From Clostridiales bacterium (GTDB taxonomy: Bacteria > Bacillota > Clostridia > Saccharofermentanales > Saccharofermentanaceae): 64,000 nt of DNA. Position 1 is the first letter of the stretch. Each line of letters opens with the position of its first letter. The notes under the pieces were generated by a model, which worked only from the letters and a program-made list of their open reading frames with translations, made no database searches and was not told the origin of the DNA. This document shows, in pieces, positions 4,104 to 61,320 of the stretch. The stretch lies in the NCBI GenBank assembly GCA_017513085.1, contig JAFWDK010000027.1:128001-192000 (forward strand), given 5' to 3'. Made by a program: the position numbers and the translations under genes.

Positions 4104-4159
4104 GCGGAATCAGCAAACCGAAAACAGTAGACCGCAACCGGTGATCTGATCTGTATAGA

Positions 4160-41948: not shown

Positions 41949-42881
41949 ATGAAGAAAAGTATAGCATGCATCGCGGCTCTTTCTTTGATCCTGGCTATGG
42001 CCGGCTGCAACAGCAAGAAAGAGACTGAAAAGAGATGGACACCACCGTCCGGTACAGGAGAGGAATCTGCTCCTTCTGAAGAAACAACCACTACAGAAGA
42101 GACAACAGAGGAGACAACAACAGCTGAAGAGACAACGACAGCGGCTGAATCTTCCAAGGAGACATCTGCTGATGCTTCCGAAACATCTGCTGACGCTTCC
42201 GAGACTTCTGCTGACGCTTCCGAGACTTCTGCCGAGTCCGGAAAAGTTATGTCTTACAAGGAGTACAAGGACGCAGCTCTTGATTCCGAGGTAACGATCG
42301 AGGCTTATGTACAGGCTAAGCAGTCCTGGTGGGATAACAAAGCTACCGTATATCTTCAGGACGAAGATGGTGCTTATTTCGCCTACAACATGGCTTGCAC
42401 CGAAGAAGATTATGCGAAGCTCACAGATGGCCAGAAGATCCGCGTGAAGGGCTTCAAGTCCGAGTGGTCCGGCGAAGTGGAGATCGTTGACGCAACTTTC
42501 GAAGTGATTGAAGGCACATGGACAGCTACTCCGGTAGATGTAACAGCTGAGCTGGGTACAGATGCTCTGATCGACAAGCAGAACCAGAAAGTTTCTTTCA
42601 CCGGTATGAAGGTAGAAGCTTCCAAGGACGCAGACGGCAAGGAAGTTGCTTTCCTTTACAAGTATGACGGATCCGGTGCTGAGGGCGATGACCTCTACTT
42701 CCAGGTTTCCGCTAACGACAAGACCTACACATTCACAGTTGAGTCCTACCTCTGCGATAAGGATTCCGAAGTGTACAAGGCTGTAAAAGAACTGAAGGTC
42801 GGCGACACAGTAGATATGGAAGGTTTCCTCTACTGGTATGAGGGTGCTAACCCGCACATCACAAAGGTAACCGTTAAGTAA
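41949..42881 (+). CDS. Lipoprotein with Ser/Thr/Glu stalk and two OB-fold-like domains
   Basis: MAGC lipobox, EETTT/SADASET stalk, VYLQDEDGA...GQKIRVKG and LKVGDTVDMEGFL OB patterns. Confidence 0.75.
   Translation: MKKSIACIAALSLILAMAGCNSKKETEKRWTPPSGTGEESAPSEETTTTEETTEETTTAEETTTAAESSKETSADASETSADASETSADASETSAESGKVMSYKEYKDAALDSEVTIEAYVQAKQSWWDNKATVYLQDEDGAYFAYNMACTEEDYAKLTDGQKIRVKGFKSEWSGEVEIVDATFEVIEGTWTATPVDVTAELGTDALIDKQNQKVSFTGMKVEASKDADGKEVAFLYKYDGSGAEGDDLYFQVSANDKTYTFTVESYLCDKDSEVYKAVKELKVGDTVDMEGFLYWYEGANPHITKVTVK
42165..42227 (+). repeat. In-frame 21-bp tandem repeat x3 (SADASET)
   Basis: TCTGCTGAYGCTTCCGARACW repeated three times. Confidence 0.9.
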
Positions 42882-46201: not shown

Positions 46202-46328
46202 AGTTTACACCTTCAGAATCACTTGTCGGGGACTTATAAAAATCCACGATAATAATACCAGTATTCGGAAGAATTGGAAAGAGAGCCACAAGTGCGCTAT
46301 AATGTTGCTGAATATTTAGGGGCGGTAA

Positions 46329-48020
46329 ATGGGCATTTTCGAAGAAAAAACATATCAGGTCAAGTGTAGCGGTCTTTCCAACGAAGGACAGGGTGTCGCG
46401 CGTATTGAGAGCGACCGTGAAAAAGATAACGGACTAAAGGTATTTGTGGACGATCTCTTACCCGGAGAGGTCGCTAAGATCCGTATTACTTCGCGTGAGA
46501 AGAACCTGGCTCACGGAGAAAAGATCGAAACCGTATCCGAATCGCCCAACCGTGTTGTGCCTGTCTGCTCCGAGTTCACCAAGTGTGGTGGATGTCAGAT
46601 TCAGCATGCCGACTATGCCTGCCAGCTCAAAATGAAGGAAGACATGGTCCGCTCTTGCCTGCACCGTATCGGGCATATTTCCCTTTCCGACCTTCACTCG
46701 GTCAGCGAGCCCATCTTAGGCGCCCCGGACCAGTTCTTTTACCGCAATAACGTTCAGTATCCGATCGAATACAGTCATGCCAAGAAGAGCGTGAATATCG
46801 GTCTTTACGAGAAGAAGAGCCACAAGATCGTGGAACATGAGAAGTGTTACCTCGTTCATCCGTCAGCCGAAGTGATCCGTGGTGTGGCGCAGATCTATTT
46901 CAGCGACCACTCCCGTGCCAATATTGCTAAATATCTCCGGCAACTCATTGTTCGTGTGGGTTTTTTCAGCAAGGAAATGATGGTCGTTCTCGTCTGCACA
47001 CGTCCTATCAAGCTCGATGCGGAAGAATTCGTCCAGACTTGCGAGAGAGCCATGTCACAGGCACAGATCGGTATGCACATCTCCAGTATCTGGACACAGG
47101 AAACCAAGGACCGTGCCAAGAAGGGGGCTTCCGATTGTTGGACCAATGTCTGGGGGAAACCCTATATTCATGAATTCCTGGAACACCGGGTATTCCGCAT
47201 CTCGCCGGATGCTTTTTTCCAGGTCAACAGTAAACAGACGATCCATCTGTATTCCAAAGTTAAAGAATATCTCCGCTACGACGGAGCGCTTCCCCGTCTT
47301 CTTGTGGATCTTTACTGTGGCACCGGCAGTATCGGCATCTTCTGCTCCAGTGTCTGCCATCACCTGGTCGGTATCGAGTCAGTCGAGTCTGCCGTAATCG
47401 ATGCGCGCGCCAATGCTACAGCTAATTATCTTGAAAACGCCGAGTTTTTCTGTGGTAAAGCAGAGGACTACGATTTCGGCGCAATGATGCCGGACGCGGT
47501 CGTCATCGATCCTCCTCGCAAAGGCTGCGACGAAAAACTGCTCCGCGAACTACTGCATCTGGCCCCTACCCGGATCGTTTACGTTTCCTGTAACCCTTCC
47601 ACATTAGCGCGGGACCTTCACCGTCTCTTCCAGATCCAGGAAGAGGGCGACACACGCTACGGCATCAGCCGTATCTGCCCGGTGGATATGTTCCCGAATA
47701 CGTCTCATGTCGAGACTGTTGTCTTGCTTTCCAAGGAAAACATATCGACAAAACATGTTCGGGTTGAGTTTAATCTTGAAGAGATGGATATGTCAGGATT
47801 CAAGGTCGGTGCTACTTATGAAGAGATAATCGCATGGGTTCAGGAGAAATACGGTTTCCATGTTACTCATCTTAATATTGCTCAGGTCAAGCGCAAGTGC
47901 GGGATCGTTGAAAGAGAGAACTACAATCTTCCAAAATCACCGGACTCAAGACAACCGAATACTCCTAAGGAAAAAGAGGATGCGATCAAGGATGCGTTCA
48001 AGCATTTTAATATGATCTGA
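46329..48020 (+). CDS. rlmD: 23S rRNA m5U1939 methyltransferase RlmD with ~100-aa element-derived C-terminus
   Basis: TRAM domain, CSEFTKCGGC, AFFQVN, DLYCGTG, DPPRKG, YVSCNP, DMFPNTSHVE; extension follows ETVVLLSK. Confidence 0.95.
   Translation: MGIFEEKTYQVKCSGLSNEGQGVARIESDREKDNGLKVFVDDLLPGEVAKIRITSREKNLAHGEKIETVSESPNRVVPVCSEFTKCGGCQIQHADYACQLKMKEDMVRSCLHRIGHISLSDLHSVSEPILGAPDQFFYRNNVQYPIEYSHAKKSVNIGLYEKKSHKIVEHEKCYLVHPSAEVIRGVAQIYFSDHSRANIAKYLRQLIVRVGFFSKEMMVVLVCTRPIKLDAEEFVQTCERAMSQAQIGMHISSIWTQETKDRAKKGASDCWTNVWGKPYIHEFLEHRVFRISPDAFFQVNSKQTIHLYSKVKEYLRYDGALPRLLVDLYCGTGSIGIFCSSVCHHLVGIESVESAVIDARANATANYLENAEFFCGKAEDYDFGAMMPDAVVIDPPRKGCDEKLLRELLHLAPTRIVYVSCNPSTLARDLHRLFQIQEEGDTRYGISRICPVDMFPNTSHVETVVLLSKENISTKHVRVEFNLEEMDMSGFKVGATYEEIIAWVQEKYGFHVTHLNIAQVKRKCGIVERENYNLPKSPDSRQPNTPKEKEDAIKDAFKHFNMI
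47712..47735 (+). repeat. Left attachment junction of the IME
   Basis: GAG ACT GTT GTC TTG CTT TCC AAG (ETVVLLSK). Confidence 0.85.
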
Positions 48021-48159
48021 TTGAAGATACTTTAGTTAATCACGCCGTGGGTAGTTGGAGCAATCCAATGTCCTGCGGCGGTTTTATTATGCCTGAAGGT
48101 ATTGTGTCCGATGGTATAATTGAAGCAGATGGATTCAATAGGCAACGGGAGGTGTGGCA

Positions 48160-48735
48160 ATGAACATAAGAAAAATAACATCTCTGGTACTTGTCTTTGT
48201 ATTTGTGTTCTCATTTACCGCCTGCAAGAAAACTGATGTCCCCGAGCTGGATAGAATCTTGAATTATTCAGTTGAACAGTTTGATGATCTGGCAAGCAGC
48301 GTTGATGAGAAGGATTTGATCAAAGCATGGGGTGAACCGCAAGCATTAGGCAGCCGCAGATTCTGGAGAATCAGTGTTGAGGGCGAGACGACAAAGTTTG
48401 TTGTGGCATGGGTTGAGAACGGAAACGTAACATCTATTCACGTTTCCAAGCCTCTGTTTATCAATGTTGCAGCTATAGAAAACGGCGTAGCTTACTGCGT
48501 ATTTGGTTGGAATTACTATTCTACTGATGCAGCTAATCTTGCATTTATGCCAACACAGGACTGTTTTGGCAATGAGATTGCATGTGAGGTTGGTGATCAA
48601 TTCATATTCCAATTTGACGGTATGATCATGGAGTCTTATCCGGCACAGATCAACGCTCCATACTCGGCTGTTCGGATGGGACACCTGTCTGACGAAGAAA
48701 TCTCCGAGATGGCAAGTAACATTGTATTACCGTAG
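48160..48735 (+). CDS. Hypothetical lipoprotein
   Basis: FTAC lipobox, GGAGG RBS, upstream TGGTATAAT extended -10. Confidence 0.75.
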   Translation: MNIRKITSLVLVFVFVFSFTACKKTDVPELDRILNYSVEQFDDLASSVDEKDLIKAWGEPQALGSRRFWRISVEGETTKFVVAWVENGNVTSIHVSKPLFINVAAIENGVAYCVFGWNYYSTDAANLAFMPTQDCFGNEIACEVGDQFIFQFDGMIMESYPAQINAPYSAVRMGHLSDEEISEMASNIVLP

Positions 48736-48764
48736 CGATTATCTTTGATCGTTATTTCGACGGA

Positions 48765-49682
48765 TCAATACACAAGCAGTCCGTTTTCCATTTTGAGTAA
48801 TCGATCATCTACAAAGACAATTGGTACTATCTCGGAGTCGTTATTTTCTGCACAGTTGAAATCCACAATATATTTTAAAGCCTGCTCTTCGCCGGGAAAT
48901 ATAATCAATTGATATGGAAAGTTATAATCCAGCTTTTCTAATAACATAACACCTTCGGATTTTGTATGAATCAGGACAGCCGCGTGACCGCAATGCAAAA
49001 TGTACTGATCACTATCATCATAAATATCAGATCCGTTAAACCATATAGAAATCAAGCTGATGTTATTGTTTCCCTGGAAACTAATGCCGGTCTGTCTCCA
49101 ATACTCATTTATTTGCTCCGCCTGTTCAGACACACTGATGTTTTCGGACGATTCTATACCGTTGAATAATAATGTGAATTGTCTGATATCTGAATCAGAC
49201 TGAAAAACGGATGAATCGTTGATTTCAACAAGCATCATCGGCTCTGTCACTTGGGAAGCTGTGTCGTATGAAATAAGCGAACCCATAGCTTCAAATGCAG
49301 TTAATCGGCAGTTTCTTCTGCCGGTTAGATTCCCATATTTACTCTTCCATTTTCTTTCTAGCTTTGTTGAATCATATGCGGATGCAGCGTTTTCAGTAAA
49401 AACCGCAAATCCGCTTTGTACTGGTAAAATATCTCCTGTAGCAGCATTGTACTGAATGATGTTTTCGAGCAAGGCATCTATATAAGGCTTTTGAACGCCT
49501 GCTTCTTCCAAAGCTGTCCTTAGAACATCCTGCGATTCCAGATCAACAAGGTTACTGTATACTGCATCATACGGAGAACCCTGTGACTCTGTCTTGCTGT
49601 TTTGCGTTCCACAGCCTGTAACAAGTAGTATTAAACATAATGTTGTTACGAAGGTTAATACGCTATTTAATGATTTATTCAC
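48765..49682 (-). CDS. DUF4300-like lipoprotein
   Basis: VTGC lipobox, YSNLVD, NCRLTAF, GHAAVL, LLEKL...PYQ. Confidence 0.7.
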   Translation of the reverse strand: MNKSLNSVLTFVTTLCLILLVTGCGTQNSKTESQGSPYDAVYSNLVDLESQDVLRTALEEAGVQKPYIDALLENIIQYNAATGDILPVQSGFAVFTENAASAYDSTKLERKWKSKYGNLTGRRNCRLTAFEAMGSLISYDTASQVTEPMMLVEINDSSVFQSDSDIRQFTLLFNGIESSENISVSEQAEQINEYWRQTGISFQGNNNISLISIWFNGSDIYDDSDQYILHCGHAAVLIHTKSEGVMLLEKLDYNFPYQLIIFPGEEQALKYIVDFNCAENNDSEIVPIVFVDDRLLKMENGLLVY

Positions 49683-49700
49683 TCTTTATAATCCTTTCCA

Positions 49701-50516
49701 TCAATTCGGAATATATGTATTAGTTTCCTGATTGAAGAAGGAATAATAATCGAACCCATCAACTAAACCTTCAAACTCGGCAAAATCCATAAATCGATAG
49801 ATTTTGTTATCAGGTGTAACTATAGCTTCCATATCTCCATAATATAAGTATACCAGCTGTTGTCCAGCATGCTGTTGTAGAAAACTGTTGTACTGGGAAT
49901 ACCATGATCCACCGAAAGCAATGCCATACCAAAGGCCATTCTCATCTTTTGATACGGATATAACGGATATAAGATCTTCGTCGTTATAGACTAGAAAATC
50001 TCTCCAATTGACAGCTACAGAATTATCATTTGTTCTGTAATGTCCATACCCCGTTTCGCTGATGACCATATTCTGAGCATTAACACCAGATGCCTCAAGA
50101 CTGTTTTTGATGCCTGCATAGTTTTCCATTAGAAATGCATAGGCTTCTTCATTTGTTAACCAATAATCTACACCCGTTAAATGAACACAAGCTCTATCCG
50201 TGATAATTACGCCTTCTTCTCCGCATCCGTCAGGAACTGTTTCGTTAGTTGATCCATGAGATGTCTGAAGCGTTTCCTCTGTAGCCGTAGAACTTATAGA
50301 TTCTGAAATCAAGGTATTCTCAGTTGTGAACGTATCCTTCCTAGGTAATAACTTTATAACCATAACTGCAATACCTGCTACTATCAAGACTGATGCAGCG
50401 ATCCCAATGTATCGAACCCAAGCCGCATTTTTCTTTGCCTTTTGAAATGTCTTCGCTTCCTCAATAAATCTATCGTCTATGATTTCGAATGTATCCAATA
50501 TGAATTCTCTTCTCAT
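49701..50516 (-). CDS. Putative anti-sigma factor
   Basis: IDDRFIEEA N-terminus and IAASVLIV TM; overlaps the ECF sigma stop. Confidence 0.75.
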   Translation of the reverse strand: MRREFILDTFEIIDDRFIEEAKTFQKAKKNAAWVRYIGIAASVLIVAGIAVMVIKLLPRKDTFTTENTLISESISSTATEETLQTSHGSTNETVPDGCGEEGVIITDRACVHLTGVDYWLTNEEAYAFLMENYAGIKNSLEASGVNAQNMVISETGYGHYRTNDNSVAVNWRDFLVYNDEDLISVISVSKDENGLWYGIAFGGSWYSQYNSFLQQHAGQQLVYLYYGDMEAIVTPDNKIYRFMDFAEFEGLVDGFDYYSFFNQETNTYIPN

Positions 50517-51073
50517 AATTCGAACCCCCTTGCTAACAGATAATCGCGGAGTTTGATCCTGATGCGACGAATTGATGTGGATATATTATTCTCACTTGTT
50601 CCTAGTCTTAAGGCAATTGACTTGATATCATCAGCGTACCAATACCGACGTACTATCATTACTCTTTTCTCCAACGGGAGATCATAAAGAAAATCGTTAA
50701 TTGCCTTTGCCAGATCATTGCGGACAACATCATCTTCGGGACTGGGATTATCTGACGCAATTTCACCGATTTCATCCAGTAGAGCCGGAATCACATTGCC
50801 GCCGCGCTTTTCTGCTAAGTTCTTACGATATCGATCCAAGGAAATGTTTCGAACGATGCGTCCGATAAAAGCAGAGAAGACGGATGGTTTCTGTGGCGGA
50901 ATGGTATTCCATACCCTGGAATATGTATCATTCACACATTCTTCTGAATCCTCATTGTTATAGAGGATGTTGTAGGCAATGGAAAAGCAGTAGTTGCCGT
51001 ACTTTCGCGAAGTCTCAGTAATTGCCGATTCGTCGCGATTCCAATATAAGCGAATTATTGCATCATCATTCAT
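50513..51073 (-). CDS. ECF RNA polymerase sigma factor
   Basis: RDESAI, DSEECVND, RIVRNISLDRYR, RRYWY; AAGGAGG RBS before ATG 51073. Confidence 0.92.
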   Translation of the reverse strand: MNDDAIIRLYWNRDESAITETSRKYGNYCFSIAYNILYNNEDSEECVNDTYSRVWNTIPPQKPSVFSAFIGRIVRNISLDRYRKNLAEKRGGNVIPALLDEIGEIASDNPSPEDDVVRNDLAKAINDFLYDLPLEKRVMIVRRYWYADDIKSIALRLGTSENNISTSIRRIRIKLRDYLLARGFEL

Positions 51074-51092
51074 CAAGATGACCTCCTTCACT

Positions 51093-51125
51093 TATATAGA
51101 CGTATTCCTCACATGAATCTGACAG
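51093..51125 (-). promoter_or_regulatory. Putative autoregulated ECF promoter
   Basis: Minus strand reads TGTCAGATT...CGTCTATATA just before the sigma RBS; CGTC is the typical ECF -10. Confidence 0.5.
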
Positions 51126-51144
51126 TTATTATTCTACCATTTTG

Positions 51145-52869
51145 TCAATCATCAGTTTCATCTATCCTTCTAAATACAGCAACTACATCTGGTTCGTAAT
51201 ACAAGGTCTCATAATCATCGTTTAAGTAATCATCAACACTGTACTTGTCGTTTTCCTGTCGAAGATCTACGACATAATACTCAGTCTTGTTGTCCGTTCG
51301 TTCCAGTTCATAAACAACATCGTGATCCGAGAAGTCGGCTACAAAGAAAGCTGTAGCCGTAACAGATGCATCTTCAGGCACAAGGGAGACAGCGTAGTTT
51401 ATCTTTGCACGTTTTTCCGCCGAACGGTTAAAGAAATCTATGTACCCCAGGTGGTCATAATTGATGCTTGAACATAATACTATCGTACAGCACGCACCAT
51501 ATAGAAGCAGTTTATCTCGATGTTTTTCTTTAAGGTCGGCATAGTTGAGTACTGCCAGATATACGAGAATAGCACATGTACCAAAGCAGTATTGATATCT
51601 CATATCATATTGGTAATGGTAATTCGGCATCAGGTTAATCAATATCCATGGGAGCATAAGAATAGCTCTTTTAAAATCCTTTGTTATTATTGGCAGGAAT
51701 CCCATCGGCATCAGAGTCAGGAACATAAACTTCAGTTTATCTGCCACTGAAATCTGACTTATAACGTAGACAGGATCTGAGATTGCGGTTGATAGGATCG
51801 ACAATGTTCCTTCTCCGTCCTGCAAATAATTGTTATAACGATACAACATTACCCCGTCGCCGTATGTGGACAGATAGCGCGTGATACCCACGAAGTATGC
51901 AATAGATACTATAAAAATGCATAAATTACATTTGTAGTTTTTATGGGTAAATAAAAAGTACAAAGCAATAACAGCAACATATACGGCCGCATCTTCTTTG
52001 ACTGCAAGCAATAATATAGAGAAAAGCGCCTGACCATACCATAATTCTTTTTCACAGAAATATATAAGCCACAAAACAAGCGGTGCAAGGAAACAGTTCT
52101 CATGAAGATGGTAGAAACAACCACCGACAAATCCCGGAAAGAATAGATATATCAGTGAGAAGATGATCATTGAGGCTTTCCCTAACGAGTGCTTTCTCAT
52201 GATCAACGCCAAGGGTATTATTCCGGACATTACGATCAAACTTTGCATAAGTTCCAGAGTTATAGGACTTGGGAAAAGATAATAGAATGGAAGAATAAGA
52301 TAGTAGATGGGTGACATATGAACAGAGAAATGTGACATTAAAACATCTCTTTCACAAGTCGTAAATGGTATGCCTGTCTCTTTCATATAATGAAACATTT
52401 GAGAAAATATCCCAAAGTCATAACAGGCAGTCCAATGGTTTATATAGATCAGGCAACAGTTCCCTCCAACCAGTACGACAAAAAGGAGACATAGGAATAG
52501 AATAGAACGTCGGAATGTTTTATTCCCTATTCGCGGTCGGATATCCTTGATATCGGTACTCAGAATAATAATCCCAAGAACTACACACAGTCCTATTGCG
52601 AAATACTGTTCACGATTGATTACTGCCGCAGCTGTAAAGTAGAGGGTCGAAAAGACAATCATGGCAAGTTTGACAACTCTCTGATCTTTCAATCTGTTGA
52701 TCAGTAACCAGATCGAGAATACTGCAACTATGAAGAGAATGATCGCCAAGTATTTCACTGAGTGTAAATTGACCAGATCCATTTGTTTATTGGCAAAATA
52801 TAATACAGAGACGAGAATCCAGCTTAGTGCAAGATTATATGCTTTGTTAGAATCTAGTTTAGCGAACAT
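51145..52869 (-). CDS. DUF2079 family polytopic membrane protein (GT-C-like)
   Basis: YDFGIFSQ, SHFSVHMSPI, LHENCF, VKED, YQY, LVPEDASV. Confidence 0.8.
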   Translation of the reverse strand: MFAKLDSNKAYNLALSWILVSVLYFANKQMDLVNLHSVKYLAIILFIVAVFSIWLLINRLKDQRVVKLAMIVFSTLYFTAAAVINREQYFAIGLCVVLGIIILSTDIKDIRPRIGNKTFRRSILFLCLLFVVLVGGNCCLIYINHWTACYDFGIFSQMFHYMKETGIPFTTCERDVLMSHFSVHMSPIYYLILPFYYLFPSPITLELMQSLIVMSGIIPLALIMRKHSLGKASMIIFSLIYLFFPGFVGGCFYHLHENCFLAPLVLWLIYFCEKELWYGQALFSILLLAVKEDAAVYVAVIALYFLFTHKNYKCNLCIFIVSIAYFVGITRYLSTYGDGVMLYRYNNYLQDGEGTLSILSTAISDPVYVISQISVADKLKFMFLTLMPMGFLPIITKDFKRAILMLPWILINLMPNYHYQYDMRYQYCFGTCAILVYLAVLNYADLKEKHRDKLLLYGACCTIVLCSSINYDHLGYIDFFNRSAEKRAKINYAVSLVPEDASVTATAFFVADFSDHDVVYELERTDNKTEYYVVDLRQENDKYSVDDYLNDDYETLYYEPDVVAVFRRIDETDD

Positions 52870-52895
52870 GACAAGAAGAATCCTTTCAAGAATCT

Positions 52896-52909
52896 ACTAC
52901 AAATGTAGT
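52896..52909. promoter_or_regulatory. BlaI/MecI/CopY-type operator upstream of the DUF2079 gene
   Basis: Palindrome ACTACA-AA-TGTAGT (TACA-NN-TGTA consensus). Confidence 0.75.
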
Positions 52910-52927
52910 TTATTGGGGTAAAAAAAT

Positions 52928-54142
52928 TTATTCGCTTGGATAAGCGGTCATAGAGGTTGTTGTTTCTGTAATAGCAGTGGTAGTCGTTGGGATTGTTTCA
53001 TCGCCGAAATACTGCACATACGAAGTTTCTTCCACTTCCATGTTGTCAATATCCATATAATACGTCGTGACTTCAGTCATATCTTCTTCACCTATCCAAT
53101 ATGTTGTCTCCGCACTAGATTCGGGAGTGTTCATGATGGTCGTAGTTACAGACGGGTAGGAGTCATTGTATGAAGAATCCTGAGAAGAGATATCTTTAGA
53201 TGCAATAGCAAATCCCGATATGCACGTAAGAAGAATAATCGCAATCAATGTACCTATAAATAGTCTACGAGATCCTGATAGGATCAATTGAAGTCTGTGC
53301 TTAAGGCTTTGTTTAGGAGAATAAAAGTTGGTCGTTATAGCTGGTGTGGGGCTAACTGAAAACGTAGATCTGGTTGCTGAGACTGTATTAAGGATCGACT
53401 CACAATATACTTTTCGCATTTGTGCATCCTCATCAGAGGTGACGGCCATATCACAATAATATTCGCATTCCTGTTCGAGTTTCCTGCTTATCACTATCAT
53501 CAAGGGATTGAACCAGTGCATGGTGCGACATACCGTGATGAAAAGCTTAATCCAAAGGTCATGATGTTTATAATGTGTAAGCTCGTGCTTAATGATTAAT
53601 CTCAGTTCGTTATAACCATAACTTCTGCAGGGGATAAGGATTATCGGATTGATAAGCCCGGTCATCATTGGTGACGAGATGCATTCGGATGTATACACCT
53701 CTATTGGTCTTTTTATCTTGAGTGCTTTAGATACTTCACTTGTCAATTCCTGTATATCAGAAGGCGCCGATTTTGCAAATCGCATAACTGTTTTATTCCA
53801 TGCAGTACTACGTATAATGTAGAAAAGAATAAATGATACCGCTCCGATAAGATAAATGGCAGTTACAACAGACATAGGATTAATCAGTGATGTCGTACTA
53901 GTATGGACTGTATTTGTAGCAACAACAGGATTTGCTGGTGCTGTATTCTCTAAAGTAACCAATGCACTTCCCCAATGGGGTCTGATTGGAATGAGAAATC
54001 CGATAATAACGACAAGCCAAGAATAGTATCTGATCGATGGAGACTGTTTATTGCTAAGAACGCGTGAGACTATCAGATAGATTACTGCGACTATGGACAT
54101 GTTCATTGAGCAAATGAGAATATTAAGCATTGCACACCTCAC
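52928..54142 (-). CDS. BlaR1/MecR1-like peptidase M56 without penicillin-binding domain
   Basis: SPMMTGLINPIILIP, HELTH, HWFNP, EYYCD; short Thr/Glu-rich C-terminus. Confidence 0.9.
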   Translation of the reverse strand: MRCAMLNILICSMNMSIVAVIYLIVSRVLSNKQSPSIRYYSWLVVIIGFLIPIRPHWGSALVTLENTAPANPVVATNTVHTSTTSLINPMSVVTAIYLIGAVSFILFYIIRSTAWNKTVMRFAKSAPSDIQELTSEVSKALKIKRPIEVYTSECISSPMMTGLINPIILIPCRSYGYNELRLIIKHELTHYKHHDLWIKLFITVCRTMHWFNPLMIVISRKLEQECEYYCDMAVTSDEDAQMRKVYCESILNTVSATRSTFSVSPTPAITTNFYSPKQSLKHRLQLILSGSRRLFIGTLIAIILLTCISGFAIASKDISSQDSSYNDSYPSVTTTIMNTPESSAETTYWIGEEDMTEVTTYYMDIDNMEVEETSYVQYFGDETIPTTTTAITETTTSMTAYPSE

Positions 54143-54510
54143 ATATCATTAAGCCAGTTCTTGAGTTCACTAATATCTTCGTCAGATATCTCGCCATCAC
54201 TATATAAGGCCTTCACAAAACCTGACATCTTATTTGCACCGAATCTACTTTTCAGTGATTCTGCCTCAATGTTCATATATTGTGACTCGCTGATAACAGC
54301 ATAATATCCACGCTCTTTGCCATTCTTTTCGGAATGCAGAAAGCCTTTCTTTTCCAACCTGACAAGCATAGTCATGACGGTTTGCTGTTTCCAATCACGA
54401 TCATGAAGATCCCTGCTTAAGATTACCGTGAGGGCTGGAGAAGTTACAGGCTGCTCGATATGCCAAATAGCCTTCATTATTTCAAATTCTGCATCCGGTA
54501 GTTTTTTCAT
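54139..54510 (-). CDS. BlaI/MecI/CopY family repressor
   Basis: LPDAEFEIMKAIW, TVMTMLVRLEKKG. Confidence 0.93.
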   Translation of the reverse strand: MKKLPDAEFEIMKAIWHIEQPVTSPALTVILSRDLHDRDWKQQTVMTMLVRLEKKGFLHSEKNGKERGYYAVISESQYMNIEAESLKSRFGANKMSGFVKALYSDGEISDEDISELKNWLNDM

Positions 54511-54531
54511 TGCACGAATAATCTTTCATAA

Positions 54532-54545
54532 ATTACATTTGTAGT
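54532..54545. promoter_or_regulatory. BlaI-type autoregulatory operator
   Basis: ATTACA-TT-TGTAGT ~22 nt upstream of the repressor start. Confidence 0.75.
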
Positions 54546-54640
54546 TTATCTAATGATAAGTCAATAATTCCGTGTTGTCAATTTGAAATATGAGAAAACG
54601 GCAGTCATCGATAAACAAGACTATATCCCTTAGGTTACTA

Positions 54641-54686
54641 AGGGCGCACTTCTATACATACCCTACGGGATGTATCAGTGCGCTCT
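54641..54686. other. MOBQ-type origin of transfer (oriT)
   Basis: AGGGCGCACTT is the reverse complement of AAGTGCGCCCT, the RSF1010/pIP501-type nic motif; lies in an inverted repeat with AGTGCGCTCT. Confidence 0.75.
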
Positions 54687-54783
54687 CCGAGGGCAGGTAA
54701 TGCAACTTCGCTTCAGATGCATTAATCTTCGTCACGTTCGTTCCGGACAAGAGGCTCAGCCTCTTGCGCCACTATGGTGGCTA

Positions 54784-56145
54784 TCACCAATCCCGCCACT
54801 TCAGGCGGTCGTATTCATGGAACCTTATATGAGGATATTGAGCCGCATACCGCTCACAGTAATCAGCGGGTCTGCATCTGACATAGATGTTGATGATCGA
54901 CTCATATAACGGGGCAAACTTCTTCGCGGCATATTCGATCTTTTCAAGATCGTTCCGATCAAAGCGTCGATCCGTATCTCGGACTATTTTGACGAAAAGC
55001 ATTTTGCCATCGTATGGAATTACGCTTTCAAAGTGATAAACAAAACCTTTCTCGATAACATCAGATGGTCTTATGCTGCAAAGCGGATTCCCCGTATACA
55101 AGTCATCCAGCCCGAAATCAATGTTCAGTGCGTGAAGGTGACATGCCTTTTCGTATTCCTGTTCAGATAATCTTGTAACCGCTTTAATGTAGTCATCGGT
55201 AATTTCCGGAAATTGCTGAGGTCGAGCCAATCGCATTTTTTCTTTGATCAGGAAGGAATAGTATAGCTCCATATATATGTTTCGGAAGTAATAGCATTTC
55301 CCGGAATGTTTAAGTATCCGAACATCAACAAGGGAGCGAAGATACTTCTCACATTTATTATATGCATATCCTGTTACGGAACCGATCTCGCTTATACGAG
55401 TATTATCCTCTGCAATGACAGTAAGTAGTTCATTATATATCTCCGGTTTGCGGAAATAATGATCCATCAGATGCGGCATATAATTCATCAACGGCGAATC
55501 AATGCGGGTCAGGTTCCAAGCCGCATCTTTGAAATTTTCATATTCAGAAAAAAGCCGGACAAGTTCCGGTATTCCTCCGGTTGCCGTGCTTACCAGGAGA
55601 GAATTCTGCGCATCCATCTTCGGAAGCATCTTATGAACGTCGGAAAGTGCCAGATGATTCACAGTGCAAGGGAATATGTTTTTGCCCATCCCCGTGGGAA
55701 GCCGTTCTCCGACAAGACAGATAAAAATGTTATTGCGATCCGGATCGAACCTAAACTTTTCGAAAGCATCGATAAACCCAATATAATCTTCTGTTTTCTG
55801 GATATCGTCAAGGATAAAGATCTTATAATGCCAGCCTGACAGATGCTTCATCGTTTCAAAGATATCACTCCAATTATCACTTGCCGCTTTGATGCCGGTG
55901 TACCTTTCAACACGCTCGGCTAACAGCTTCTGTGCGCAATTCTCCGACTGACCTTTAAATGAAAAATAGCACAGATCGGCTCGGTTCTCATAAGCCTTTA
56001 AAACAAGAGATGTCTTGCCGCAGTGAGGCTCTCCCAAAACGGCAAGTATCTCCCGCGGTTCACCCCAACCGTTCTTGTCATGGAGGTTTTCCTTGAACAG
56101 CCCTTTTAACTCATTAACGTAAATCGTTCTCGGCGCGAATAACAT
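54784..56145 (-). CDS. P-loop ATPase (archaeal-type AAA, winged helix, DUF234-like tail)
   Basis: GEPHCGKT Walker A, FILDD Walker B, TGGIP, YLRSLV HTH region. Confidence 0.75.
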   Translation of the reverse strand: MLFAPRTIYVNELKGLFKENLHDKNGWGEPREILAVLGEPHCGKTSLVLKAYENRADLCYFSFKGQSENCAQKLLAERVERYTGIKAASDNWSDIFETMKHLSGWHYKIFILDDIQKTEDYIGFIDAFEKFRFDPDRNNIFICLVGERLPTGMGKNIFPCTVNHLALSDVHKMLPKMDAQNSLLVSTATGGIPELVRLFSEYENFKDAAWNLTRIDSPLMNYMPHLMDHYFRKPEIYNELLTVIAEDNTRISEIGSVTGYAYNKCEKYLRSLVDVRILKHSGKCYYFRNIYMELYYSFLIKEKMRLARPQQFPEITDDYIKAVTRLSEQEYEKACHLHALNIDFGLDDLYTGNPLCSIRPSDVIEKGFVYHFESVIPYDGKMLFVKIVRDTDRRFDRNDLEKIEYAAKKFAPLYESIINIYVRCRPADYCERYAAQYPHIRFHEYDRLKWRDW

Positions 56146-56408
56146 ATTTCACCTTCTCAGTAAATAATCAACTTATAAGTTGATAAAAGTGCTTTCATTA
56201 TACATCAAACGGCATTTTGATTCATTGTTGACAATTTTCGTTCTGAACAAAATGCCCATAAAATAAGGCTCTTTAAAAAGTTTACAAAATAATTTCGATC
56301 ATTTGTCTACCAACTGCCCGGAAAACCACTAACAAAAAGTAGAAGCACCTGAAAGGGCAAGAATGTCTTTTTCGAAGGTTTCAATAATCAAATTTGCAGG
56401 AGGTAAGA

Positions 56409-56735
56409 ATGAAAAAACAAACAGTCGAAGACATCAGGAAGGAGATCATATCCACAGAAAAGGACAAGGTGATCATCGTACATCAGATCAAAAGGCTGGA
56501 GAACCGGGCAAACTATTACACCAAAGCTGAGAAGCGAAAAAGAACGCATCACCTGTGTAATATCGGCGGTGCAATCGAGGCTCTTTTCCCTATTTCGAAG
56601 ACACTTTCAAAGACAGAATTCTTCGAATTTATGGAGAAGATTTCAGCATTGCCGGATGTTGTTTCCTTGGTAAAAGAGACAGAGAACAGAATTATGATAA
56701 ACACCGCTGACGATCACGGGAAGGATGTGGTCTGA
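56409..56735 (+). CDS. DUF3847-like mobilization accessory protein
   Basis: KRKRTHHLCNIGGAIE motif, coupled to the relaxase. Confidence 0.75.
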   Translation: MKKQTVEDIRKEIISTEKDKVIIVHQIKRLENRANYYTKAEKRKRTHHLCNIGGAIEALFPISKTLSKTEFFEFMEKISALPDVVSLVKETENRIMINTADDHGKDVV

Positions 56736-58174
56736 TGGCGCTCTATCATTTTTCCGTAACACAGGTTAAGCGAAGTGCAGGACAAAGCGCGATTGCCTGC
56801 GCATCGTATCGTGCAGGGGAACGTCTTTACAGTCAATATTACGATGAGGTCAGTGATTACTCCAAGAAAGGGGGCGTGATCTATAGTGAGATCATGCTTC
56901 CAGAGAATGCACCTAAGGAATATGCGGATCGGGAAACACTCTGGAACGCTGTCGAAGATGTGGAGAAACACCCCAAGGCACAGCTGGCATATAGCTTTGA
57001 TATTGCTCTTCAGAACGAATTATCCCAAGAAGAAAATATCGATCTGGCTAGAAGATTTGTGAAGGAATATCTTGTGGCAGATGGTATGATCGCTGATCTT
57101 GCCGTTCACAATCCTGAACGTGACGGGAACCCCAATCCTCATATTCATATCCTTACAACGATGCGGCCTCTTAATCCTGACGGAAGCTGGGGATCTAAGC
57201 AGCATCGTGAATATCTTTTTGATGATCAGGGGAATCCCGTAAAGGATGAGAAAGGTAATCAGAAATATAAAGCGGTACCGAATACCGATTGGGGAACACC
57301 CGAGAAACTTCAGCAATGGCGCGAGGATTGGGCAAACCTCGTTAATTCCAAATTCGAAGAGAAAGGTCTTCCCTGTCGAATAGACCACAGATCTTATGAG
57401 AATCAGGGCATTCATGAACTTCCGACAGTTCACGAAGGTCCGACTGTCCGTGCGATGGAACTGAAAGGCATTCCAACGGAAAAGGGCGAGTATAACCGAT
57501 GGATACGAAAGACAAATGCGATGATCAGGGGTCTTCTCTCTAAGATTAAAGAAATGGTCGCCGCTATCAAAGACATGCGCGAAGAAATCAAGAGAATCGA
57601 GGAAGAACCTTCTCTCGCAGATCTGTTGATGGCAGGTCGAACCCCAGCAAAATCATCGTTACAGGATCTGAAATTCCTCTCGGCGGATATTCTCTTCCTT
57701 CAGAAACATTCTATCTATCGAATCGATGATCTTGAGAACTATCTTGAAAAGATGGAGTCTCTTAAGCAGTCGCAGAAAGATCGTCTGGATAAATGCAATG
57801 CCCGGAGAAAAGAAGTGAAAGAACTTATCTCCTTGCTTGATATCTATCACGAGACCAAGCCGATCTACGAAGAAGGCATGAAGAAATTCTTCGGCAAAGA
57901 GAAGTATATGCAAGAAAACGAAGGCAGGATCAAACAATATCAGATGGCAAAGAGAAAACTCGCCAAAGCATCAAAGTCTCGCGGCGGAAAACTCACAAAG
58001 AAAATGCTCGAAAAGGAACTTGCAGCATTGGATTCGGAGTATTCCGCTATCCGCGATGAATTCGTCAAGAGTCGAGACGAAGTCCAAACGGTAAGCAGGA
58101 TCCAGTATTCGATACAGCGCGGGCTCGAAGCAAAACATCCTCATAAAACCAGAGCTACAGATCTATCACTTTAA
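56735..58174 (+). CDS. mobA: MobA/MobL family (MOBQ) relaxase
   Basis: MALYHF, SAIACASYRAG, LWNAVE, NPHIHIL, IDHRSY, PTVHEG. Confidence 0.93.
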   Translation: MALYHFSVTQVKRSAGQSAIACASYRAGERLYSQYYDEVSDYSKKGGVIYSEIMLPENAPKEYADRETLWNAVEDVEKHPKAQLAYSFDIALQNELSQEENIDLARRFVKEYLVADGMIADLAVHNPERDGNPNPHIHILTTMRPLNPDGSWGSKQHREYLFDDQGNPVKDEKGNQKYKAVPNTDWGTPEKLQQWREDWANLVNSKFEEKGLPCRIDHRSYENQGIHELPTVHEGPTVRAMELKGIPTEKGEYNRWIRKTNAMIRGLLSKIKEMVAAIKDMREEIKRIEEEPSLADLLMAGRTPAKSSLQDLKFLSADILFLQKHSIYRIDDLENYLEKMESLKQSQKDRLDKCNARRKEVKELISLLDIYHETKPIYEEGMKKFFGKEKYMQENEGRIKQYQMAKRKLAKASKSRGGKLTKKMLEKELAALDSEYSAIRDEFVKSRDEVQTVSRIQYSIQRGLEAKHPHKTRATDLSL

Positions 58175-58196
58175 AAATACGGAGGTATATAAATAT

Positions 58197-58451
58197 ATGA
58201 AAAAGTATTATAACAATCCCAAATATGATGCGGCATTTGATCGTTGCGTCAATATATTGGCAACCCTTATGGTGAAGTACGGCCCGAGAGTGCTTCTGAA
58301 GCAGGCCGTTGAAAGAATACTTGGTAAGGGACGCCTGAGTATCTACAATCCTGAAAGTCCTAAGATCAAGAAAGAACGTCTTATCGCGTATCAGAAAGAG
58401 TACGGCAAGATCAGTTCTTCCGCTAAGGATGTAAAAGATAAAGCCGCATAA
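58197..58451 (+). CDS. Small hypothetical protein of the IME
   Basis: 84 aa, GGAGG RBS, basic, between relaxase and regulator. Confidence 0.6.
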   Translation: MKKYYNNPKYDAAFDRCVNILATLMVKYGPRVLLKQAVERILGKGRLSIYNPESPKIKKERLIAYQKEYGKISSSAKDVKDKAA

Positions 58452-58529
58452 GACACAAATCTACAATTTGTGCGTTGCACATGATATGATTATTAGTTAT
58501 TATTAGTGCAACGCATAGATAAGGAGATT

Positions 58530-58742
58530 ATGATCATGGACTGCAAGACAAAGATAAAAGAACTTCGTGAGATGACAGGAATGAACAGAACGGAGTTTTG
58601 TGAGTACTTCCAGATTCCATACGGAACAGTTACCGATTGGGAACGTGATTACCGTCATGCACCGGAATATGTTCTCCGCCTTCTGGAATACTACATCCGT
58701 ATGGAGAATCTCATAAAAGACAATAAGGACGAAACGAAGTAA
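58530..58742 (+). CDS. XRE-family HTH protein
   Basis: IKELREMTGMNRTEFCEYFQIPYGTVTDWE. Confidence 0.85.
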   Translation: MIMDCKTKIKELREMTGMNRTEFCEYFQIPYGTVTDWERDYRHAPEYVLRLLEYYIRMENLIKDNKDETK

Positions 58743-58781
58743 CCGCATCGAATTACATACGGTTAGAAAGGAAAAGATAAT

Positions 58782-59642
58782 ATGGCTAACAAACCCATTA
58801 AAGATACTATTCATGCTAAAGGATTTGATATCGGTATATATACCACCGATTACGAGAATGAATTTATATCATTGACGGATATCGCAAGATATAAGAGCGA
58901 TATGCCTCATGATGTGGTCAAAAACTGGATGAGGAGCCGAGAAACAATAGAGTTTCTTGGAATCTGGGAGAGTCTGCACAATCCGAATTTTAAACAGGTC
59001 GAATTCGACCTGTTTAGAAAGGAAGCAGGATTGAACGCATTCACAATGTCACCTACAAAGTGGATCGAAAGTACAAATGCTATCGGCATCGTTACAAAAG
59101 CCGGACGTTATGGCGGAACTTATGCGCATTCCGATATTGCACTCGAGTTTGCATCTTGGGTATCTGCCGAATTCAAACTTTATATCATGAAGGACTATCA
59201 GAGACTAAGGCGTGATGAAAGTAGCAGGCTGTCTCTTGCATGGAACCTTCACCGCGAGATTGCCAAGCTTAATTACCGTGTTCATACCGATGCGATCAAG
59301 GATAATCTGATTCCACCGGAACTGACATCAACGCAGATCTCATATAAGTATGCAAGTGAAGCAGATATGCTTAATGTCGCACTTTTCGGTAAGACTGCTA
59401 AAGAATGGCGGGATGAGAATCCTGATAAAAACGGCAATATGAGAGATTATGCTACTCTGAATCAACTCCTTGTTCTGGCTAACATGGAAAGCTATAACGC
59501 AATTCTTATTGAACAAGGAAAGCGGATGTCAGAACGTCTTGTTCTCATTAGAAAGCAAGCTATTAAACAACTTCAGACACTTGATCTGGTAAGTCTGGAC
59601 AATCTGCCCAAGCTCCCGGGAGGAGATAATAATGAAGAATAA
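58782..59642 (+). CDS. KilA-N domain DNA-binding protein
   Basis: FISLTDIARYK, TIEFLGIWE, GRYGGTYAHSDIALEFASW. Confidence 0.9.
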   Translation: MANKPIKDTIHAKGFDIGIYTTDYENEFISLTDIARYKSDMPHDVVKNWMRSRETIEFLGIWESLHNPNFKQVEFDLFRKEAGLNAFTMSPTKWIESTNAIGIVTKAGRYGGTYAHSDIALEFASWVSAEFKLYIMKDYQRLRRDESSRLSLAWNLHREIAKLNYRVHTDAIKDNLIPPELTSTQISYKYASEADMLNVALFGKTAKEWRDENPDKNGNMRDYATLNQLLVLANMESYNAILIEQGKRMSERLVLIRKQAIKQLQTLDLVSLDNLPKLPGGDNNEE

Positions 59643-61320
59643 TAAAAAGAAATGTTATATCTATACCCGTGTCTCCACGATGATGCAAGTCGATGGATTC
59701 AGCCTTGATGCCCAGAAAGATAAACTCCGCAAGTATGCTGATTATCAAGATTGGGAGGTCGCTGCTGAGTATTCCGACGAAGGATGCTCCGGTAAGAATA
59801 TCCAAGGCAGACCTGAGTTCTCGCGCATGATGTCAGATATTGAGGATTGCAAAGATGGAGTCAGTTATGTTCTCGTCTTTAAGCTTTCACGTTTCGGTCG
59901 TAATGCCGCAGATGTTCTGAATTCCTTGCAGATCATGCAGGATTTCGGGGTGAATCTCATCTGTGTGGAAGATGGTATCGACAGTTCCAAGGATGCAGGT
60001 AAGCTCATGATATCCGTCCTTTCCGCTGTTGCTGAGATTGAGAGGGAGAATATCCGTACTCAGACCATGGCAGGACGTGAGCAGAAAGCTCGCGAAGGCA
60101 AATGGAACGGAGGCTTTGCTCCTTATGGTTATAAGCTTGAAAATGGAGAACTCCTTATTGCCGATGATGAAGTTGAGATCATCAATATCATATTTGATCG
60201 CTATATACATACGAAGGACGGGATTAACGGCGTAGCAAGCTACCTGAATTCGCATGGCTATACAAAGAAGTTACGTCAGAATAATACTATTCCGGGGTTT
60301 TCCTCTTCATTTGTTAAGGCAGTAATAGATAATCCGATATATATGGGGAAGATAGCATACGGGCGTCGAAAGACAGAAAAGAAGATCGGTACCCGTAATG
60401 AAATGCACGTTGTGGAGCAATCTGTATTCCCTGTTTATGAAGGTGCACATGAGGCGATAATCTCTGAAGTGGACTGGAATCTTGCGCAGGAGAAGAGAAA
60501 ACTTAATGCTTACAAACGCCAGAAGGTTCATGATATCGATCACGCACATATACTTTCGGGAATCCTTAAGTGTCCTTGTTGTGGGAAGAGTCTATACGGA
60601 AATATCGCCAAGGCACACAGCAAGGATAACAAGACGCGATTCTACTACTATTGCAAGAACACCTTAGGGGCGACCGGACATCGTTGCACATTTAGACATA
60701 ATATAGAACAGACAGAGATCAACCAGATGGTTGCATCTATAATATCTGCAATGGTTACAAGACCGGACTTCAAGGAAGCGATCACCGAAAAGATAGGATC
60801 CGCTGTTGATACCAAGGATATGGAAAAACAGAAGGAAGCCTTGCAGGATAAACTCAGGCAGACTCTGGGAACCAAATCCAAGCTTGAGCATCAGATGGAC
60901 AGTCTAGATGTCCTTGATCCGCACTATGACAGGAAGATGCTGGATCTTCAAAGAAGATATGATCAGCAGTACGACATCCTTGCCGATATAGAGAATCAAA
61001 TCGAGGACCTGAAAGAACAGATTCGTCATATTCAACATGAAAATATAACCGGTAATAATATCTATCAGTTGCTTCTAACTTTCGATGAATTGTATGATGA
61101 ATTCAACGAAGCAGAGAAAAAGGATTTCATGAGATCATTCGTAGAGCGTATCGACATATATCCCGAAAAGCCTGAAAACGGCTGCTGGATAAAGAATATC
61201 GTGTTTAACTTCCCCATTCCGATGAATGGGGAAGACATCACGGAATTGCCCTTGGAATCTCAAAAGACCGCTGAGACGGTAGTTCTTCTGTCCAAACTAT
61301 CCAGCACAGCCAGGCTGTAA
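59632..61320 (+). CDS. Large serine recombinase (integrase) ending in the host RlmD tail
   Basis: YTRVST catalytic Ser, SRFGRN, APYGY, HEAII, CPCCG zinc ribbon, coiled coil; last 15 aa ETVVLLSKLSSTARL. Confidence 0.95.
   Translation: MKNNKKKCYIYTRVSTMMQVDGFSLDAQKDKLRKYADYQDWEVAAEYSDEGCSGKNIQGRPEFSRMMSDIEDCKDGVSYVLVFKLSRFGRNAADVLNSLQIMQDFGVNLICVEDGIDSSKDAGKLMISVLSAVAEIERENIRTQTMAGREQKAREGKWNGGFAPYGYKLENGELLIADDEVEIINIIFDRYIHTKDGINGVASYLNSHGYTKKLRQNNTIPGFSSSFVKAVIDNPIYMGKIAYGRRKTEKKIGTRNEMHVVEQSVFPVYEGAHEAIISEVDWNLAQEKRKLNAYKRQKVHDIDHAHILSGILKCPCCGKSLYGNIAKAHSKDNKTRFYYYCKNTLGATGHRCTFRHNIEQTEINQMVASIISAMVTRPDFKEAITEKIGSAVDTKDMEKQKEALQDKLRQTLGTKSKLEHQMDSLDVLDPHYDRKMLDLQRRYDQQYDILADIENQIEDLKEQIRHIQHENITGNNIYQLLLTFDELYDEFNEAEKKDFMRSFVERIDIYPEKPENGCWIKNIVFNFPIPMNGEDITELPLESQKTAETVVLLSKLSSTARL
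61273..61296 (+). repeat. Right attachment junction of the IME (displaced native rlmD 3' end)
   Basis: GAG ACG GTA GTT CTT CTG TCC AAA (ETVVLLSK). Confidence 0.85.

Follow-up and report, generated by a model that had tools for sequence, protein, structure and literature searches.

In a stretch of 64,000 nucleotides from a Clostridiales bacterium (contig JAFWDK010000027.1, positions 128,001 to 192,000; this whole stretch is called the window, and positions are counted from its first letter), we identified a putative integrative mobilizable element (IME) of 13.56 kb inserted in the last codons of rlmD. At the sequence level, its integration splits the gene of the element's own large serine recombinase (LSR), whose C-terminal end is left as a 102-aa tail on RlmD, and excision would rejoin the two parts.

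The rlmD open reading frame (ORF; 46329..48020, + strand) encodes 563 amino acids and the recombinase ORF (59632..61320, + strand) encodes 562, and each contains one copy of the pentanucleotide GAGAC, which is the sole identity between the left (attL) and right (attR) junctions of the element. This core opens codon 462 of rlmD, as (47712-46329)/3 = 461, and codon 548 of the recombinase, as (61273-59632)/3 = 547, in frame 0 in both genes. In the integrated state RlmD comprises 461+102 = 563 residues and the recombinase 547+15 = 562, and the reciprocal forms expected after excision would have 476 and 649 residues, respectively; an initial annotation of this DNA had given the same codons and the same lengths, and both coordinates and arithmetic agree with it. 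A perfect 5-bp inverted repeat (GTCTC ATGTC GAGAC, 47702-47716) spans the attL core and looks terminator-like in a scan, but it is more likely to be part of an att-site dyad. Scoring of dyad symmetry for the crossover dinucleotide gave a weak maximum at the first GA (attB 47/126 at offset 0 vs 45 at offset -6; attP 23/72). The crossover would lie somewhere within GAGAC, and the scores weakly favour GA at 47712-47713. As a side observation, the + strand has seven copies of GAGAC in a span of about 200 bp (42021-42226), which suggests a repeat-coding stretch. The pentamer by itself is common and uninformative (109 matches in the window vs 139 expected), and the case for the boundaries therefore rests on other evidence.

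This evidence came first from the closest relative of the same genus, in which rlmD is uninterrupted (locus L007 of genome G013) and encodes an RlmD that is 93% identical and ends in ...VETVVLLSRGK. Alignment with blastn matched positions 3-2913 of this empty site to window positions 44840-47740 and positions 3246-4407 to 61329-62490, which places the insertion at about 47740/61329; comparison of the junctions narrowed it to GAGAC and, read by eye, the empty site resembles attL to the left of GAGAC and attR to its right. Between the two aligned segments (2913-3246) the relative has a 333-bp spacer after rlmD with two copies of a CACGTGGGTGCCTCGC-like motif, and in the window the native rlmD end abuts a convergent GH94 gene that ends at 61329. 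The GC content falls from about 0.51 outside to about 0.40 between the two cores. In addition, contigs from two runs of other studies (X7 and X8) matched window positions 47709-58829 and 58989-61275 with 0 differences over the 13.4 kb compared, and these contigs continue for kilobases into sequence unlike the window, whose own host flanks are nearly uncovered in both runs (left-flank depth 0-0.4, right-flank depth about 1). The ends of the match and the different flanks therefore place the same element, with the same ends, elsewhere, which we take as indirect support for its mobility. All ORFs of the element are intact. Two further runs gave isolated observations: in X1 contigs a loose end at 61273 resembles the rlmD end of another organism, and one X4 contig swaps 7.8 kb of cargo (window 49360-57208) for 37 other letters, with only 21 letters on one side, which may point weakly to a cargo variant of the element.

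The identity of RlmD was established with the model TIGR00479 (rumA; 326.4 bits vs a cut-off of 183.55), whose positions 1-432 match residues 16-462 and thus end exactly at the crossover residue, while a second RlmD model, PRK13168, extends to residue 469. The ORF also shows a cysteine cluster, CSEFTKCGGC, and a VSCNP motif, which we take to be the RlmD catalytic motifs. After GAGAC the same peptide, TVVLLSK, is encoded at both junctions with different codons (ACT GTT GTC TTG CTT TCC AAG and ACG GTA GTT CTT CTG TCC AAA); the two copies differ at 7 of 21 nucleotides, and all 7 mismatches are synonymous, 6 of them in third position (hypergeometric P for at least 6 of 7, 8.5e-4). Because the RlmD models end at 462 and 469 and TVVLLSK is re-encoded, the element appears to restore the end of the RlmD fold, so that the whole conserved fold would be kept. 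As TVVLLSK has one and the same reading frame in the two genes, the exchange preserves the frame in either direction. After this peptide RlmD gains 94 amino acids, corresponding to a linker and a domain, and the recombinase is closed by 15 native RlmD residues.

The recombinase has the features of an LSR, with a resolvase catalytic domain (Resolvase PF00239, 8.1e-39, residues 9-158) including the nucleophile serine, followed by Recombinase (PF07508, 4.4e-17) and zinc-ribbon (Zn_ribbon_recom PF13408, 1.6e-9) domains; in its alignment (A4), R13, V14 and S15 are nearly invariant and Q19 and four cysteines are invariant. We interpret the 102-aa tail as this enzyme's own C-terminus. Natural full-length recombinases of 651-666 aa carry the tail, the closest element-free relative (L007) lacks it on its RlmD, and in the 2 of 2 tail-bearing genomes of the same genus with enough downstream contig the recombinase ends in an RlmD-like stub, which reads ...AETVLLLSRV in one (L026, recombinase 87.5% identical) and ...VETVVLLSKVK in the other (L027, 52% identical); three more such relatives, whose contigs break 2-4 kb downstream, were left out of this count. 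Together with the boundaries and the reading frame, these observations uphold the earlier proposals that the tail belongs to the recombinase, that attP lies inside the recombinase gene and that the RlmD fusion is a product of integration. Among the matches listed, a full tail is present on 6 of 21 same-genus rlmD loci, each from a different genome. Four rlmD ends of this genus (L014, L016, L021 and L023) encode a tail-less RlmD with a short ending that resembles the start of the tail (e.g., ...LSKLSEAKHHIEVKVDMDELD... and ...KPRVEFEF), and these endings are possibly scars of lost elements.

A survey of its conservation found the tail to be both widespread and constrained. Searching with the 94 residues after TVVLLSK gave 3443 matches among longer proteins, and the best 120 of these comprise 86 fusions to very diverse RlmD proteins, 23 fusions to recombinases, 6 of which are full length (651-666 aa) with all three LSR domains, and 11 other fusions. 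The tail junction is a [VI]E[TC]V[VC][LQ]LSK-like motif in 118 of 118 rows with the tail motif, the other 2 of the 120 having no motif match. The ends of N6-methylases account for 6 of the 11 other fusions; in these proteins (P0011, P0028-P0030, P0046 and P0052) an N6 DNA methylase (PF02384) continues at its end, in frame and via ...GEIVQLSK, into the tail, which points to other target genes or secondary sites. An exhaustive, profile-free search with a natural 655-aa recombinase that carries the tail, P0102, yielded 150 representatives at 50% identity, with the tail on 18; some of the rest stop soon after their RlmD-like motif, many carry long extensions of unrelated sequence, and the long representatives (700-1136 aa) align to the core only. 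Scanning species-representative genomes confirmed 346 tails, and the best 80 of the 346 loci hold 83 tails, of which 53 are fused to RlmD and 4 to a recombinase, while the ORFs of the other 26 are short or of another kind. When the whole class was sampled evenly, 26 of the 299 genomes that were scored, among them that of the window, had a match reaching the helical domain (1 more genome was unscored).

The structure of the tail was examined in AlphaFold2 (AF2) models. Modelled alone (mean predicted local distance difference test score, pLDDT, 69), it shows disordered residues 1-23 followed by helices at 28-39, 45-54, 61-64 and 78-90. The model of the natural P0102 is confident to residue 546, drops to pLDDT <50 over residues 551-583, which include the junction VETVCLLSK, and is confident in its last three helices (589-600, 606-615 and 639-651), giving a domain of about 65 aa. 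On these models, the crossover would fall in the coding sequence of a flexible linker between the recombinase core and a three-helix domain, and the RlmD-end peptide does not seem to contribute to the structure of the recombinase. An alignment of 14 sequences of the domain (A2) contains 30 invariant columns. The median ratio of nonsynonymous to synonymous substitution rates of the tail is 0.16 (911 pairs from 79 sequences, which are related, so that the value is descriptive only), which argues for purifying selection. The initial annotation had described this part as a compact basic domain resembling a helix-turn-helix (HTH) and had quoted the peptide ATYEEIIAWVQEKYGFHVTHLNIAQVKRKCG from it: the peptide is present in the RlmD-fusion ORF and a compact three-helix domain is predicted, but the domain is only mildly basic (isoelectric point 8.8 over tail residues 22-94, and 6.5 when all 94 aa are counted) and the HTH label is weak, with structural Z scores of 4-5.

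Taken as a whole, the explanation that we regard as best, and as somewhat more probable than its competitors together, is the following, with most of our doubt on its last step. Recombination by the LSR at GAGAC would exchange the 3' ends of rlmD and of the recombinase gene, reciprocally and in frame. A newly arrived circle could make only the 649-aa form, and a cell with one integrated copy only the 562-aa form. Because a newly transferred circle encodes only the former, the long form would have to integrate, and because a single integrated copy encodes only the latter, the short form would have to excise, except where the domain is supplied by the RlmD fusion or some other factor aids the short form. 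The detached domain would most likely be an extra DNA-binding (HTH-like) module through which the long form recombines attP x attB more actively or with a bias towards it. Without the module, the recombinase would be less active and the integrated state more stable, as in the IntP/IntX pair of phage Mx8.

Several results weigh against this explanation. The HTH likeness of the domain is a weak lead, not a finding: the best VIA-align score of the tail (Z 5.4) was to an unrelated enzyme, and eight LacI-family headpieces gave Z 5.0, 4.9, 4.0, 4.0, 4.0, 3.7, 3.5 and 2.7 (46-48 residues, root-mean-square deviation 2.3-2.9), all below the level held meaningful, as Z <8 possibly reflects a common arrangement. 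Foldseek found no match of the tail model in the PDB at E <= 0.001 (best row E 4.9), and no Pfam (E up to 0.1) or NCBIfam (E up to 0.01) family was assigned to the tail. Contigs of the four runs X1, X4, X7 and X8 contain neither an empty-site joint (47712-61273 skipped) nor a circle joint, and contigs drop rare forms, so that they are uninformative on excision. The full-length recombinase genes with tail on the long contigs L065 (8306-10306) and L077 (3501-9881), being placed between two element-like gene sets, are probably junctions of tandem arrays, attP-like by construction, rather than free circles; L077 has another tail 5.7 kb upstream, on a 150-aa non-RlmD ORF. Finally, many copies of the tail may be decaying, given the share that lies in short or non-RlmD ORFs. 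Other searches with the tail returned only chance-level rows in a PDB sequence profile search (a bacteriocin, E 0.04, and AcrIIA15, E 0.47) and, in the ESM Atlas, only clusters of 73-81 aa that are unnamed or labelled 23S rRNA methyltransferase; the one family that it matches is phrog_27283 (E 4e-4), whose 69-position profile has no assigned function. When the core of the recombinase (residues 1-547; alignment A4) was co-folded with the tail (A2), both runs scored 0.00 vs a mark of 0.32, which is evidence neither way.

Rather than serving a function, the exchange could be a neutral by-product of a linker that tolerates an rlmD-like att sequence, in which case the 562-aa and 649-aa forms would behave alike, the role of the domain would be independent of the integration state or minor, and the RlmD fusion would be inert. 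The position of the junction peptide in a low-confidence linker fits this possibility, and the tails found on unrelated or short ORFs (11/120; 26/83) would make the fusion partners incidental; to our knowledge, canonical large serine recombinases need no such extra domain. We nevertheless consider it rather unlikely, since the domain is strongly conserved across recombinases that are only 37-50% identical and, of the two forms, belongs solely to the one that has to integrate, and since the Mx8 precedent indicates that such exchanges can alter activity.

A more far-reaching possibility, which we judge unlikely, is that the three-helix domain is a built-in directionality switch replacing a separate recombination directionality factor (RDF), so that the recombinase would act on attP x attB only when the domain is attached and on attL x attR when it is absent, and the copy borne by RlmD might act in trans to adjust excision. 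We identified no RDF in the element. That the tail is itself an RDF was also considered and appears unlikely, as the fused form is present precisely in the state that calls for integration.

The fusion protein could also be a regulator in its own right, with the rlmD promoter driving an RlmD-domain fusion that acts on the element, for instance by repressing it, by conferring immunity to related incoming elements or by assisting the short form as a directionality cofactor. A promoter-like site does lie upstream of rlmD, and the terminator scan flagged several sites inside rlmD upstream of the crossover, among them the attL dyad, and no intrinsic terminator between the crossover and the tail stop. 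The in-frame RlmD fusion is kept in most occurrences (86/120; 53/83), but with TVVLLSK in the same frame in both genes it is automatic and needs no selection of its own. A weakly HTH-like fold and the stand-alone homologues of phrog_27283 would suit a regulator, whereas the tandem arrays (L065 and L077) would make any exclusion of related elements leaky at best. Independent translation of the tail from its MDM codons was ruled out, because these methionines are missing in a second tail clade, in which DELD(V/L)T replaces the MDMS of the first, and the internal start is therefore not conserved. A trans-acting regulator thus seems quite improbable to us. Scarcely credible is a fixed remnant in which the exchange is a reading-frame coincidence at a dead junction: the contigs of the four runs did lack an excision product, but the ORFs are all intact, two other studies contain the identical element (0 differences over 13.4 kb) between different flanks, and the same architecture recurs in thousands of proteins.

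The explanation favoured here, a reciprocal exchange that yields a long, integrating and a short, excising form, has close precedents. The sections of Ambroset et al. 2016 (PMC4701971) that bear on this point describe streptococcal integrative and conjugative elements (ICEs) in rumA with repeats of 2-21 bp in rumA and in the serine integrase gene, whose integration reciprocally exchanges the 3' parts and leaves attR within the integrase gene; these sections suggest, with reference to Mx8, that the integrase probably functions differently in its two forms, and state that the exchange changes the translation frame. The arrangement and our main hypothesis were therefore already in print in 2016, and the window element is a further instance of the described kind: the initial annotation was right in calling rlmD/rumA a known serine-integrase target, and the exchange itself is not new, since both it and the same speculation on two forms had been published for streptococcal elements. 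In the relevant sections of Coluzzi et al. 2017 (PMC5357655), two streptococcal IMEs in rumA and one snf2-specific IME with its site inside the integrase gene are reported, and phi-m46.1, as presented in part of PMC4288039, integrates at the rum 3' end with an 18-bp core and forms free circles.

Like the streptococcal rumA elements, the window element is integrated in the 3' end of rlmD (crossover residue 462), has a short repeat with copies in both this gene and the integrase gene, and exchanges their 3' parts reciprocally. It differs from them in its host, an animal-gut genome of the class Clostridia, in its cargo, which comprises BlaI/BlaR1-like, extracytoplasmic function (ECF) sigma factor, DUF2079 and DUF4300 genes, in the length of the repeat (5 bp vs 2-21 bp in the ICEs and 18 bp in phi-m46.1), and in that both ORFs continue in frame, as opposed to the frame change reported in the relevant section of PMC4701971. 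A homologue of the tail (49% identity, E 2e-19, junction HVETVALLSK) is found on the rum methyltransferase coding sequence of a Streptococcus suis prophage record (OP662530.1), and others come from two 'rum' phages of S. gallolyticus and from a plasmid of Anaerococcus; homology to streptococcal elements was thus established for the tail. On that plasmid, pAPRE01 of Anaerococcus prevotii (NC_013164.1, 43612-45667; L111), a tail lies after an annotated 606-aa recombinase gene, and the match runs past the annotated stop.

In phage Mx8 attP lies inside int, and integration replaces the C-terminus of the integrase, 112 residues by 13 (as cited in PMC4701971); the prophage form is described as less active in that article and, in the pertinent part of PMC6070905, as changed in specificity but not inactivated. 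The window element shares the state-dependent integrase logic of Mx8 IntP/IntX, but the Mx8 enzyme is a tyrosine recombinase with unrelated fold and chemistry, and no host gene gains the detached part in frame. Integration-dependent immunity has been described for mycobacteriophage BPs (PMC4557955, in part). There, too, attP lies inside a coding gene, so that integration alters the C-terminus of a protein; the split gene is the repressor in BPs and the recombinase in the window, and the likeness is one of logic only. The BPs switch reportedly works by removal of a degradation tag, and no such tag is evident in the window element. In canonical large serine integrases (phiC31, Bxb1, A118/LI and SPbeta) attP is not part of the integrase gene, and a separate RDF determines direction. 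The window recombinase has the same domain order of resolvase, recombinase and zinc ribbon, and long helices (401-488) in the AF2 model of P0102, a relative 50% identical to it, may correspond to the coiled coil; unlike these integrases, it gains or loses an extra C-terminal domain with the recombination state. A search of the literature, the supplementary tables of PMC4701971 and PMC5357655 not covered, found no test of the two integrase forms.

To the published description we add that the exchanged part appears to be a conserved domain which folds on its own and is preceded by a disordered linker, that the tail is widely distributed, that synonymous codons indicate re-encoding of the RlmD end by the element, and that full-length genes in chromosomes probably originate in tandem arrays. 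With 3443 tail-bearing proteins the arrangement is very common, and the same tail is found on streptococcal prophages carrying resistance genes. Many database 'RlmD' proteins of about 540-570 aa are consequently chimeras, and many 'recombinases' are recorded in a truncated, integrated-state form; mining integrated copies for genome-engineering tools would yield the short form, which may not be integration-competent. The family also offers a natural test of whether a C-terminal module that is gained and lost by a serine recombinase's own reaction can set its activity or direction.

The features of the element and its junctions are collected in the table below. It is classed as an IME because it carries a relaxase and its own recombinase and no conjugation-pore family among its ORFs: no VirB4, type IV coupling protein or other pore family was found among the 12 element ORFs (16 ORFs scanned, Pfam, E up to 0.001).

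Table. Coordinates of the element, its junctions and its genes in the window, with the basis of each assignment.
Feature	Position	Strand	Basis
Promoter-like site upstream of rlmD, TTGGAA-18-TATAAT	46274..46303	+	Consensus scan 10/12; consensus likeness only
rlmD host part, codons 1-461	46329..47711	+	TIGR00479; TRAM + tRNA_U5-meth_tr
attL core GAGAC	47712..47716	+	Only junction identity; empty site L007; dyad scores
Element-encoded TVVLLSK, apparently completing conserved RlmD C-terminus	47715..47735	+	PRK13168 RlmD model to residue 469; same peptide at attR
Putative integrative mobilizable element body, about 13.56 kb	47717..61272		GC, gene content, L007, X7/X8 contigs
Tail linker, tail residues 1-22	47736..47801	+	pLDDT <50 alone; equivalent P0102 551-583 <50
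Predicted three-helix recombinase C-terminal domain, fused to RlmD (stop included)	47802..48020	+	AF2 helices, 30 invariant columns, dN/dS, phrog_27283
Cargo DUF4300 protein	48765..49682	-	Pfam 4e-44
Cargo ECF-type sigma factor	50513..51091	-	Sigma70_r2/ECF/r4_2
Cargo DUF2079 membrane protein	51145..52869	-	Pfam 1.4e-50
Cargo BlaR1-type M56 sensor peptidase	52928..54142	-	Pfam 1.3e-46
Cargo BlaI-type (Penicillinase_R) repressor	54139..54510	-	Pfam 1e-24
DUF3847 protein upstream of relaxase	56394..56735	+	Pfam 2.2e-18
MobA/MobL relaxase	56735..58174	+	Pfam 9.2e-85
KilA-N domain protein, 11-nt overlap with recombinase start	58782..59642	+	Pfam 5e-19
Large serine recombinase core, codons 1-547	59632..61272	+	Resolvase, Recombinase, Zn_ribbon_recom; phrog_95 integrase
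attR core GAGAC	61273..61277	+	GAGAC positions; L007 empty site; X7/X8 contigs
Native rlmD 3' end, now closing recombinase ORF (stop included)	61278..61320	+	Matches L007 right of core

Elsewhere in the same genome, outside the window, a contig end truncates a second recombinase C-terminal end, which is joined at ...NTVETCVLLG... to a tail that has diverged (G000:C1:73232-73657, - strand). LSR remnants are also present at C1:68610-68825, and two further LSR genes lie on contigs C33 and C36.

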